A DNA stretch of 64,000 nt from Escherichia coli (GTDB taxonomy: Bacteria > Pseudomonadota > Gammaproteobacteria > Enterobacterales > Enterobacteriaceae): NCBI RefSeq assembly GCF_044647545.1, contig NZ_CP172818.1; one strand, given 5' to 3'. Both the position numbers and the translations under genes were made by a program. Positions 3,481 to 62,358 of the stretch are shown in pieces. Position 1 is the stretch's first letter; each line of letters opens with the position of its first letter. A model generated the notes under the pieces. It saw nothing but the letters and a program-made list of their open reading frames with translations. It made no database searches and was not told the DNA's origin.

Positions 3481-3813
3481 ATGGCTGGTTGGTTTGAACT
3501 CAGTAAGAGCAGTGATAATCAATTCCGGTTTGTGCTAAAAGCGGGCAATGGTGAGACTATCCTCACCAGCGAGCTGTATACCTCAAAAGCCTCTGCGGAA
3601 AAGGGCATCGCGTCGGTACGTAGCAACAGCCCGCAAGAAGAACGCTATGAGAAAAAAACGGCAAGCAACGGCAAATTCTATTTCAATCTGAAAGCCGCCA
3701 ATCATCAAATTATCGGCTCCAGCCAGATGTACGCCACCGCGCAATCTCGTGAAACCGGAATTGCCTCCGTTAAAGCCAATGGCACAAGCCAGACGGTAAA
3801 AGATAATACGTAA
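3481..3813 (+). CDS. yegP: DUF1508/UPF0339 family protein YegP
   Basis: 110 aa from ATG at 3481, preceded by AGGAG RBS; internally duplicated ~50-aa module; the longer ORF start at 3442 lacks an RBS. Confidence 0.8.
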   Translation: MAGWFELSKSSDNQFRFVLKAGNGETILTSELYTSKASAEKGIASVRSNSPQEERYEKKTASNGKFYFNLKAANHQIIGSSQMYATAQSRETGIASVKANGTSQTVKDNT

Positions 3814-3855
3814 TGACGATGCCGGGCGTGGGTTGTTGGCGTCCGGCTTTATATC

Positions 3856-4550
<695 letters not shown>

Positions 4551-4653
4551 AACCCGCCGATTGCGCTACAATGCCCGCCCTTAAAGTGGGGGCACTCCCC
4601 TAACCGCTTCATCAGGTGAAGCGGATCTGACCTGTCATCAGAACGAGAGAATT

Positions 4654-6015
4654 ATGTTTAAACCGGAACTCCTTTCCCCGGCGGGAACGCTGAAAAATAT
4701 GCGTTACGCTTTCGCTTATGGCGCAGATGCTGTTTATGCGGGCCAGCCGCGTTACTCCCTGCGTGTGCGCAACAACGAATTCAACCACGAAAATCTTCAG
4801 CTCGGCATCAATGAAGCCCACGCGCTGGGGAAAAAGTTTTATGTCGTGGTCAACATTGCACCGCACAACGCCAAGCTGAAAACCTTTATCCGTGACCTGA
4901 AACCGGTGGTGGAGATGGGGCCGGATGCGCTGATTATGTCCGATCCAGGGCTGATTATGCTGGTGCGCGAGCACTTCCCTGAAATGCCGATCCACCTCTC
5001 GGTGCAGGCTAACGCCGTGAACTGGGCGACGGTGAAATTCTGGCAGCAAATGGGACTGACCCGCGTGATCCTCTCTCGCGAGCTGTCGCTGGAAGAGATT
5101 GAAGAGATCCGTAATCAGGTGCCGGATATGGAGATCGAGATCTTCGTTCACGGTGCGCTGTGCATGGCCTACTCCGGTCGCTGCCTGCTCTCTGGCTATA
5201 TCAACAAGCGCGACCCGAACCAGGGCACCTGCACCAACGCCTGCCGCTGGGAGTACAACGTCCAGGAAGGGAAAGAAGATGACGTTGGCAACATCGTGCA
5301 CAAGTACGAGCCGATTCCGGTGCAAAATGTTGAGCCGACGCTGGGCATCGGCGCGCCAACCGACAAAGTGTTTATGATCGAAGAAGCTCAGCGTCCGGGC
5401 GAGTATATGACTGCGTTTGAAGATGAGCACGGCACTTACATCATGAACTCGAAAGATCTGCGCGCTATCGCCCACGTTGAACGCCTGACCAAAATGGGCG
5501 TGCATTCGCTGAAAATCGAAGGTCGTACAAAATCTTTCTACTATTGCGCACGCACCGCGCAGGTTTACCGTAAAGCTATCGATGACGCAGCTGCGGGAAA
5601 ACCATTCGATACCAGCCTGCTGGAAACTCTGGAAGGTCTGGCGCATCGTGGCTATACCGAAGGTTTCCTGCGTCGTCATACTCACGACGATTATCAGAAC
5701 TACGAATACGGTTATTCAGTTTCTGACCGCCAGCAGTTTGTTGGTGAGTTTACCGGTGAGCGCAAGGGCGACCTCGCGGCGGTAGCGGTGAAAAATAAAT
5801 TCTCCGTTGGCGACAGCCTTGAGCTGATGACGCCGCAAGGGAACATTAACTTTACCCTTGAGCATATGGAAAACGCCAAAGGCGAAGCAATGCCGGTCGC
5901 ACCGGGCGATGGTTATACTGTGTGGATCCCGGTCCCGCAGGATCTTGAGCTAAATTACGCGCTGCTGATGCGTAATTTCTCCGGGGAAACCACGCGTAAC
6001 CCCCACGGTAAGTGA
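4654..6015 (+). CDS. yegQ: Peptidase U32-family protein YegQ (TrhP, tRNA ho5U34 hydroxylation)
   Basis: 453 aa; U32 family features including conserved Cys cluster (CMAYSGRCLLSGY ... CTNACRW); recognised as YegQ. Confidence 0.9.
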   Translation: MFKPELLSPAGTLKNMRYAFAYGADAVYAGQPRYSLRVRNNEFNHENLQLGINEAHALGKKFYVVVNIAPHNAKLKTFIRDLKPVVEMGPDALIMSDPGLIMLVREHFPEMPIHLSVQANAVNWATVKFWQQMGLTRVILSRELSLEEIEEIRNQVPDMEIEIFVHGALCMAYSGRCLLSGYINKRDPNQGTCTNACRWEYNVQEGKEDDVGNIVHKYEPIPVQNVEPTLGIGAPTDKVFMIEEAQRPGEYMTAFEDEHGTYIMNSKDLRAIAHVERLTKMGVHSLKIEGRTKSFYYCARTAQVYRKAIDDAAAGKPFDTSLLETLEGLAHRGYTEGFLRRHTHDDYQNYEYGYSVSDRQQFVGEFTGERKGDLAAVAVKNKFSVGDSLELMTPQGNINFTLEHMENAKGEAMPVAPGDGYTVWIPVPQDLELNYALLMRNFSGETTRNPHGK

Positions 6016-6099
6016 TTAATTTCGATTATTTTTCCCGGATGGAAAATTCTTAGAAACCGATCACATACAGCTGCATTTATTAAGGTTATCATCCGTTTC

Positions 6100-6190
6100 G
6101 CTGAAAAACATAACCCATAAAATGCTAGCTGTACCAGGAACCACCTCCTTAGCCTGTGTAATCTCCCTTACACACACGGGCTTATTTTTT
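6100..6190 (+). ncRNA. cyaR: Hfq-dependent, CRP-activated small RNA CyaR (RyeE)
   Basis: Near-exact match to remembered CyaR sequence (GCTGAAAAACATAACCCATAAAATGCTAGCTGTACCAGGAACCACCTCCTTAGCCTGTGTAATCTCCCTTACAC...GGGCTTATTTTTT) ending in hairpin plus U-tract; located just after yegQ as expected. Confidence 0.85.
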
Positions 6191-6348
6191 ATGCATAAGC
6201 CCTATCTCTGGTAACCGTCTTCCATTGACCACATCGATAGAATCCTCCTTCATAGCACGATGCCTTTCACTTATCGGCATCGTGCTCCCACAGGTTCCGG
6301 CTACGCACAGCCAGAACGCGCATGTTTGACGCTTACCAAAAAATATTC

Positions 6349-6666
6349 TCACTCTCCACATTTGAATGTCAGACGAGCGACGCCATGTAATCCTGCACCT
6401 TCTGTCTTCAGGTCAACTATCTGCATTTTTTTTCCCTGAGTAACACAGAAATGAGCTGCATCATTTTTTACTATATTTTCTGCACCAGAAATTCTGCCCC
6501 TGGCTAAAGAAGCTTCGGCTTCGGTGTAGTATTGGTTATCGAGTTTACGCTGAATATTACTTTTATATGCAAGGCCAAATTTACCGATACTTGTCTCATC
6601 ATTATGCACAGCACAACCAGACATAAGAAAAACACTAATTAATGATATAGCAGCTATCTTTTTCAT
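6349..6666 (-). CDS. yegR: Small lipoprotein YegR
   Basis: 105 aa from internal Met (MKKIAAISLISVFLMSGC: signal peptide plus lipobox); ORF-track start at 6726 is a likely over-extension. Confidence 0.75.
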   Translation of the reverse strand: MKKIAAISLISVFLMSGCAVHNDETSIGKFGLAYKSNIQRKLDNQYYTEAEASLARGRISGAENIVKNDAAHFCVTQGKKMQIVDLKTEGAGLHGVARLTFKCGE

Positions 6667-7080
6667 CTTACCTTCCCCCATTAAATACCAACGACACGCT
6701 CTGGTGTTTAAATATAATAATGGCATGATTATTATATTTGAATAGGATTATAATAAATGTTCTGTACAACATTTCCTACATAAGTAGGAATTACAGACAC
6801 GGATGCCCTTCCGGGTAACCCCATGGGGGGGTTAATATATTTTTAATAGTATATTGAAGATGCCACTGTTTAGTTGAATATTAGGTATATGCTCTTTTTT
6901 GAAATTTATCGGTGGCTGCCGTTAGTATTCGCTGTCCCCATTGCAAGCTCCTGGTGGTAACCACTGAATCTTCCATACTTGAACTGACTTTTTATCCTCC
7001 GACTTTCATCCTGTTCTGACTCTACCTTTTCTTTTCTGCTCTACACTATCTACAGACCAATCATAAAGGCACATACGATC

Positions 7081-7980
7081 ATGGCAGAATTTCCCGCCAG
7101 CTTACTGATTCTTAATGGCAAAAGTACTGACAATCTACCCCTGCGCGAAGCAATTATGCTGTTGCGTGAGGAAGGAATGACGATCCATGTGCGGGTCACC
7201 TGGGAGAAAGGCGATGCCGCACGATATGTAGAGGAGGCCCGGAAGTTGGGCGTCGCAACGGTGATTGCCGGTGGTGGCGATGGCACCATTAATGAAGTTT
7301 CTACGGCGTTGATTCAGTGTGAGGGGGATGACATACCCGTGCTGGGAATTTTGCCATTAGGAACCGCCAATGATTTTGCCACCAGTGTAGGGATTCCTGA
7401 GGCACTGGATAAGGCGCTGAAACTGGCAATTGCCGGTAACGCCATTGCGATAGATATAGCGCAGGTCAACAAACAAACCTGTTTTATTAATATGGCGACA
7501 GGCGGATTTGGGACGCGTATTACCACAGAAACGCCGGAAAAATTAAAAGCCGCGCTGGGTGGCGTCTCTTACATCATTCATGGCTTAATGCGCATGGATA
7601 CTCTGCAACCGGACCGTTGTGAAATCCGCGGTGAAAACTTTCACTGGCAAGGTGACGCCCTGGTCATTGGTATTGGTAACGGGCGTCAGGCCGGTGGCGG
7701 TCAACAATTGTGCCCGAACGCGTTAATTAACGATGGCTTGCTGCAACTGCGCATTTTTACCGGCGATGAAATTCTTCCGGCTCTCGTATCAACCTTAAAA
7801 TCTGACGAAGATAACCCGAATATTATCGAAGGCGCTTCGTCGTGGTTTGATATACAAGCCCCACACGAAATCACTTTTAATCTTGATGGCGAACCGTTGA
7901 GCGGACAAAACTTTCATATTGAAATACTTCCGGCGGCGTTGCGTTGTCGATTACCACCGGATTGTCCATTATTGCGTTAA
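7081..7980 (+). CDS. yegS: Lipid kinase YegS (DAG-kinase catalytic-domain family)
   Basis: 299 aa; diacylglycerol-kinase-like motif ([13 protein letters not shown]); recognised as YegS. Confidence 0.9.
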
Positions 7981-22334: not shown

Positions 22335-22455
22335 CCTGCCATAACGTGAAGAAGCAATGACCTGGTGGTCCGTGACTTCCCTACGCTGGCATTATCCAGA
22401 TCAGGTGATACGGGTATTTCTCAGCCTTCACGCAGAAGGGCACCCCGAGTCGTTT
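22335..22455 (-). promoter_or_regulatory. TPP (THI-box) riboswitch in thiMD 5' UTR
   Basis: Minus-strand sequence GGGGTGCCCTTCTGCGTGAAGGCTGAGAAATACCCGTATCACCTGATCTGGATAATGCCAGCGTAGGGAAGTCACGG matches the remembered E. coli thiM aptamer, including the CUGAGA motif. Confidence 0.85.
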
Positions 22456-22548
22456 GGTTGCGATAATAAATCGCAGAGGAGGATGGTAATGTCCAGCGCA
22501 CGCGTTGTAAACGGGGAAAAACGGCGGTATTACAATAACGTTGTGAAA

Positions 22549-41304: not shown

Positions 41305-41469
41305 CTTTATTAAAGGGGGAAACGGTATTCCCCTTTAGATGTGTTTTATTTTCCCGTTACTCAAAAAAATAAATAAACCGAAAAAAAGCCACTAATAGCT
41401 CCAGTACGGAAATAAGCAGGGTTAATTTTTTGTCAGTGTGTCCATCCCTTCTCTTTATAAAGGAGGGCA

Positions 41470-41560
41470 ACACCACTTTTTACCTACCCCCCCCTTTATT
41501 TTTTTTATTCGAACCATTTCCCCCCCGAAGGCCCCCCCCCCCCCCCCCCAACCCTTGAAA
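41470..41560. other. Anomalous low-complexity stretch with poly-C (17 nt), poly-T and C-rich runs; probable sequencing/assembly artefact
   Basis: Direct reading: ...tacctacccccccctttattttttttattcgaaccatttcccccccgaaggcccccccccccccccccaaccc...; same character as the 3856-4550 anomaly. Confidence 0.55.
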
Positions 41561-41704
41561 TGGGTTCGATCCGGCGCAACGTCCCAACAGTCAGGATTAT
41601 AAATCTCATTATCTTAATTGCAACGGGGTCCACCGATGGTTATAATTCGTTCGTTGGAACACGATGTTGCACAGGCCGTGGTGTTAGGCCTGAAAGTAGT
41701 AAAT

Positions 41705-41738
41705 AAAAGAACCTGCCTCACCAGCAGGTTTTTTTATT
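41705..41738 (+). terminator. Rho-independent terminator-like hairpin upstream of yehL
   Basis: AACCTGC-CTCACCA-GCAGGTT followed by T7; ~110 bp upstream of yehL start. Confidence 0.55.
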
Positions 41739-62185: not shown

Positions 62186-62358
62186 GATGAGCATTCAGAT
62201 AGTGGTTCACGCGCACGGGTTGCGCACCGCCGGAGTAAGGATTTACTGAGGCTAGCGACGCCATCATAACGAGCAAAAAGTGCGATCGTCAAAGGAGAAT
62301 CGTGAGGAAATGCTGCATTGCTGACATTTACGCCAGCAATGCAACTCAAAAGAACTTT

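Follow-up and report, generated by a model that had tools for sequence, protein, structure and literature searches.

The DNA analysed here, referred to as the window, is a 64,000-nucleotide stretch of Escherichia coli contig NZ_CP172818.1 (assembly GCF_044647545.1). The gene of the small RNA CyaR (RyeE) is found between yegQ/trhP and yegR, and yegS lies beyond yegR (Table 1). Scanning of the whole window against Rfam identified a plus strand match to family RF00112 (CyaR_RyeE) at 6098-6187, which covers model positions 1-85 with a score of 86.8 bits (gathering score 47). The gene and its promoter region have the sequence found in K-12 and in JBEHAAB-19-0176, the strain with the closest complete genome, apart from an insertion of 4 bp that makes CyaR 91 nt long in the window vs 87 nt in K-12. 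The ~85 bp located 5' of cyaR match K-12 fully. A CyaR seed scan carried out on one genome per species returned 96 loci, and the synteny of yegQ/trhP and cyaR is kept in 96 species. The other Rfam matches of the window are ordinary ones, namely a TPP riboswitch at 22361-22457 (-) with 71.2 bits and a Peptidase-S11 RNA motif at 62190-62270 (-) with 72.8 bits.

Table 1. Features of the cyaR region, in window coordinates.
Feature	Position	Strand	Remarks
yegQ/trhP	4654-6015	+	ORF of 453 aa; upstream neighbour of cyaR; so annotated in all matching E. coli genomes
cyaR (CyaR/RyeE small RNA gene)	6100-6190	+	Identified by K-12 identity; starts GCTGAAAAAC and ends with the T-run at 6190
Putative P2-type attB core	6160-6190	+	Reads AATCTCCCTTACACACACGGGCTTATTTTTT, equivalent to the P2 attP core AATCTCCCTTACACGGGCTTATTTTTT plus 4 extra bases
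(AC)4 tract	6170-6177	+	Two extra AC units (4 bp) in mid-core, in the 3' arm of the terminator
cyaR-yegR spacer	6191-6348		158 bp, without phage coding sequence
P2 P-arm-like motif TATCTCTGGTAACCGTCTTCCATTGACCACATCGA	6203-6237	+	Resembles the Int arm-binding repeats of P2 attP
Inverted repeat	6254-6286		Perfect, 11 bp, with an 11-nt loop and no T-run; 62 nt 3' of the yegR stop codon
yegR	6349-6666	-	Stop codon 6349-6351, start 6666; from the ORF and the RefSeq names of matching genomes
Degenerate second core AATCTTCCATACTTGAACTGACTTTTTAT	6967-6995	+	Right boundary of the segment absent in sister species
yegS	7081-7980	+	ORF; ancestral downstream neighbour of cyaR

The yegR gene is intact in the window and codes for a predicted lipoprotein of 105 aa with the lipobox LMSGC. 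Its counterpart in JBEHAAB-19-0176 carries an inserted IS1 (3546-4639 of the locus extracted from that strain). The yegR transcript may end at the inverted repeat in the spacer, and the P2 annotation has the ogr terminator at the equivalent position of attP. In BEN2908, SCU-116 and many other strains, ~170 bp more separate the spacer from the yegR stop codon (at window position 6343/6344; 1044-1213 in locus L002). This extra segment, which features a possible minus-strand ORF of 41 codons, is without counterpart in the window and in K-12. A terminator-like hairpin, TAACCCCATGGGGGGGTTA, with a T-run is found at 6816-6844 (+) in the yegR-yegS intergenic region, where no plus-strand gene ends.

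The 3' end of cyaR is the attachment site of phage P2. The P2 record delimits a 27-bp attP core, AATCTCCCTTACACGGGCTTATTTTTT, flanked by IHF, Cox and Int arm sites, and other strains have exactly this core at the 3' end of their cyaR. All 27 P2 bases are present in the window, in the same order, but split by 4 extra bases, and a gapped pattern search found this single match in the window, where 0 were expected by chance. The core spans the loop, the 3' arm and the U-tail of the CyaR terminator. With 31 bp vs 27 bp, it does not have exact identity with the attP core. The version of the site in the window is therefore termed a putative attB. In the P2 literature, the cyaR site is designated 'locI'. 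The search for a P2 attB core in 6150-6350, which was suggested in the initial annotation made from the sequence alone, thus yields a core, though an imperfect one interrupted by a 4-bp ACAC insertion.

The last 27 bp of cyaR serve as attB for P2 and its relatives, and P2 integrase recombines the cyaR core with the identical attP core. The prophage consequently enters directly 3' of a cyaR that stays intact, as the phage brings a replacement copy of the core. P2-like attL sequences (IHF site and P-arm) lie directly 3' of the cyaR T-run in E. albertii, Citrobacter and Enterobacter species, which indicates that the cyaR terminator is a family-wide P2-type attachment site. The terminator stem shows compensatory changes across genera.

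Two E. coli strains illustrate occupied versions of the site. The annotation of MG1655 places cyaR at 2167114-2167200 and the 629-bp cryptic prophage PR-X, which holds ogrK (b2082) and the pseudogene yegZ (b2083), at 2167183-2167811, between cyaR and yegR (b2085); as annotated, the PR-X/ogrK/yegZ region begins 18 nt inside cyaR. In a K-12-type genome, cyaR ends with AATCTCCCTTACACGGGCTTATTTTTT and is followed by the P-arm, the ogr terminator, ogrK, a 3' fragment of gene D and a partial second core, ACACGGGCTTATTTTTTT, beyond which the genome continues with precisely what lies 3' of cyaR in the window. Over ogr, D and attP, the K-12 insert shares 96.7% identity with phage P2. K-12 keeps the left end of a P2-type prophage, namely attL, ogrK and the 3' gene D fragment (yegZ). 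The O157:H7 strain JEONG-1266 carries a complete P2-like prophage at the cyaR core, whose integrase gene adjoins the core on the yegR side. The prophage junctions of both strains fall at the cyaR core, and the spacer sequence of the window is also found directly 3' of the second core copy of K-12 and of the attR core of O157. PR-X and the window thus share the same core and identical flanks on both sides. They differ in that the window has none of the attL arm, ogr terminator, ogrK, D' fragment and partial second core, i.e., not the arrangement of ogrK and D' between two core copies that characterizes a K-12-type PR-X.

Coding remnants of P2 Int, Ogr and D were searched by tblastn in 6100-7100, where only noise was obtained (E > 0.3), and in the longer BEN2908 variant of the interval, again with noise only. 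A hidden ogrK-like sequence after cyaR was considered and rejected on the same ground. The tblastn noise together with the K-12 comparison shows that the window is without the K-12 remnant and without a recent prophage. This bears out the initial annotation, which had described CyaR, ~160 bp of spacer and then yegR, with no phage genes. Its statement that K-12 carries an ogrK/yegZ remnant between cyaR and yegR proves correct as well, being the PR-X of the MG1655 annotation: in the cyaR-yegR alignment with MG1655, K-12 has phage genes, the window has none, and no ogrK-like sequence had been missed. The reading as an empty P2-type site accordingly stands with respect to a recent prophage or a K-12-type remnant, but the statement that no remnant is present holds for phage genes only, as developed below.

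To quantify the use of the site within the species, 5,426 complete E. coli genomes were searched with three queries, each specific to one junction. The uninterrupted site, represented by 101 bp spanning the core, was found in 4,144 genomes (~76%), the P2-type junction joining the int side, the core and the flank (attR) in 817 (15%) and the K-12-type junction of D', core and flank in 356 (6.6%). About 2% of the genomes are in other states, as exemplified by the closest strain with its IS1 in yegR. We are confident that 6100-6348 shows the cyaR locus unoccupied, as it commonly is. That state is the majority one, ordinary and already known. The census puts numbers on the use of the cyaR terminator as a phage landing pad. 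It also settles three expectations of the initial annotation. A comparison across genomes does reveal insertions at this place. The utility foreseen for strain typing is low, because the majority of genomes are empty and the cyaR site is therefore poor at telling strains apart. The prediction of an integration hotspot agrees with the P2-like prophages found at the site, although it is not new, the site being listed in a table of PMC3032704.

An empty site could also be a secondary state, reached if the lineage formerly carried a P2-like prophage or remnant that was lost through precise excision mediated by Int and Cox. The presence of P2-type prophages at this site in other strains and the interleaving of occupied and empty states among strains, which implies frequent gain and loss, are in line with such a history. 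We regard it nonetheless as improbable for the window: precise excision is traceless, so that the sequence gives it no specific support and a never-occupied site looks identical, and the closest strain, JBEHAAB-19-0176, is empty too.

The 4-bp insertion sets the window apart from the other unoccupied sites. Its core reads TTACACACACGGG vs the standard TTACACGGG, and the other E. coli genomes and the 96 other species have (AC)2 or an equivalent at the tract. The ACAC variant was found in 0 of the 5,426 complete E. coli genomes, where the best identity to the 101-bp query is 96.0% (97/101), the difference being a 4-nt gap. It is likewise absent from the 96 other species, and the exact 31-mer core gave 0 matches in metagenome contigs. 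The terminator segment measures 33 nt in the window, compared with 29 nt at 94 of the 96 loci from other species. When 4545-6468 of the window is compared with JBEHAAB-19-0176, the 4 ACAC bases are the only difference.

The insertion would affect both functions of the sequence in which it lies. The hairpin predicted for the window has a 9-bp stem and a 14-nt loop (-12.2 kcal/mol) vs an 11-bp stem and a 6-nt loop (-15.9 kcal/mol) in K-12, while the U-tail of CyaR is intact. A canonical Rho-independent terminator of CyaR has a stem of about 10-11 bp, a 6-nt loop and a U-tail. A simple terminator scan detected the hairpin in JBEHAAB-19-0176 and left it undetected in the window. Judged from the fold energies, the insertion is predicted to weaken the CyaR terminator. 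It would also lengthen the middle portion of the core. Since other tyrosine recombinases lead one to expect strand exchange in that portion, the window core would probably make a poor P2 attB, impaired for P2 integrase. If real, the insertion would have arisen by slippage, ACAC becoming ACACACAC.

Two patches of corrupted sequence are found elsewhere in the window. Between yegP and yegQ, the sequence at 3906-4545 decays gradually into poly-G and poly-A runs of up to 28 nt and then returns abruptly to normal; this patch looks like corrupted sequence and not like biology. Its equivalent in JBEHAAB-19-0176 codes for a parD/parE toxin-antitoxin pair. The second patch, at ~41440-41555, features an 18-nt poly-C run and falls on a type I toxin gene of the zorO type together with its leader, adjoining the OrzO-P antitoxin RNA at 41660-41735 (98.9 bits). 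That toxin genes are hit by both patches is unlikely to be a coincidence.

Because the window holds these two patches, which decay into homopolymers, the ACAC insertion may itself be an error. We lean slightly towards considering it an artefact of sequencing, assembly or data processing, in which case the real strain would have a standard empty attB. The absence of the variant from the complete genomes, the other species and the metagenome contigs that were searched argues in the same direction, as does its absence from the near-identical JBEHAAB-19-0176. The corrupted patches are, however, long, graded and homopolymeric, whereas ACAC adds a clean 4-bp unit to a dinucleotide repeat, as replication slippage would also do, and the 1.9 kb around it are otherwise error-free compared with JBEHAAB-19-0176. 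If ACAC is real, it would provide a natural test of the spacer change that is tolerated by P2 integrase and by an Hfq-dependent terminator.

The sequence that follows the core has its own restricted distribution. The segment 6191-6995 (805 bp), composed of the spacer, yegR and the region upstream of yegR, has no counterpart in sister species of Escherichia or in other genera. Three sister species, namely 'E. coli' E69 (L029; a separate GTDB species), E. whittamii (L050) and Escherichia sp. E1V33 (L052), have just 6 nt between the cyaR T-run and CGACTTTCATCC of the yegS promoter region, with neither spacer nor yegR. The yegR gene follows cyaR in 0 of the 96 other-species loci, and at roughly half of these loci the start of yegS lies 67-140 bp 3' of cyaR. 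Since the segment is lacking in the sister species and in other genera, 6191-6995 is extra in E. coli. Homologues of YegR are almost confined to E. coli and Shigella.

Both ends of this segment show similarity to the P2 attachment region. On the left side, the P-arm-like motif has a local alignment score of 38 vs 15.6 +/- 2.3 for shuffled sequences, 0 of 2000 shuffles reaching it, and the 'Int P arm' annotation of P2 falls at the position aligned with the motif. The consensus of the P2 arm repeats is tgTGGaCa (PMC3448106). On the right side, the degenerate second core ties for the best match to the core, self excluded, across the 64-kb window, where 4 sites score at least 11 when both strands are taken together. 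It lies exactly at the junction defined by the E69, E. whittamii and E1V33 loci and is kept in K-12, BEN2908 and O157. The sequence 6938-6979 agrees at 32/42 positions with the P'-side and core of P2, a score that 11 of 2000 shuffles reached.

On balance, and with modest confidence, these similarities suggest that everything between the core and 6995 descends from an old P2-type element, now decayed, with yegR as its surviving cargo, a reading that complements that of the empty site. The apparent bacterial flank would then be older DNA of phage or island origin. It would account for a segment that starts right after the core and ends with a degenerate copy of it, at a place where the three sister species have cyaR directly next to the yegS promoter. 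In addition, the attL-like sequence is longer at locus L028 and there comprises a stretch resembling an IHF site. The rare YegR homologues found elsewhere have IS-flanked or variable contexts. Against such an origin, no phage gene remnant is present inside 6191-6995, the similarity at the right end is modest and the core copy there is only a ~60% match. No extant phage with yegR was found either, the matches in the phage database and in PHROG being host flank within prophage records. The segment could alternatively have been lost from the three sister species through recombination between similar sequences, but its absence from other genera favours a gain in E. coli.

Phage records were searched for the segment and its product. 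A distant DNA search with 6191-6995 and a tblastn search with YegR, run against 50,697 phage records, gave two matches each. The matches vB_EcoM-720R8 and 'Phage TP' were rejected as evidence for yegR being a phage gene, for they represent flanking host DNA or the K-12 remnant submitted under a phage name; PHROG 21109, probably of the same origin, was rejected too. A Pfam search of YegR with a local library gave nothing significant. The distant YegR homologues are not found beside a P2 integrase or cyaR but are IS-flanked or in unrelated chromosomal contexts, which speaks neither for nor against the relic reading.

A more far-reaching reading, slightly less likely than not, is that the ~805-bp segment with the species-wide gene yegR entered at the P2 att core in an ancestor of E. 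coli, its P-arm-like motif and degenerate second core being retained, and that ACAC, if real, would be a natural allele that inactivates attB and also weakens the terminator. If the interval is indeed a relic, K-12 holds two generations of P2-type remnants in tandem, yegR, a 'core' gene of E. coli, is the domesticated passenger of an ancient integration, and repeated use of the att site layers remnants beside a conserved regulatory RNA.

The original mapping of P2 attB to the 3' end of cyaR is reportedly that of Barreiro & Haggard-Ljungquist 1992, in J Bacteriol 174:4086. The literature found on cyaR together with P2 consists of the table of Archer et al. 2011 (PMC3032704), which gives 'cyaR RNA' as the P2 insertion site. 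The states of the site reported in that table are Wphi2 in W, ogr-D' in K-12 and P2*B in B, the site being empty in Crooks (PMC3032704). The known P2 attB at cyaR is similar to that of the window in its position, from yegQ/trhP to yegR, in its 27-bp core and in its empty state in Crooks; it differs in being without the 4-bp ACAC insertion that the window core carries. Integration of phages and islands at the 3' ends of tRNA, tmRNA and small-RNA genes is a known pattern, with examples such as P2-like phages at rybB, Fels-2 and SopE-phi at ssrA, and phages at sdsR (PMC3032704, PMC3448106, PMC3333887). In such cases the att core and the terminator of a conserved RNA gene share sequence, and the integrating phage restores the 3' end of that gene. 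The same organization is found at cyaR, which shows no difference in principle and is one more instance of it.
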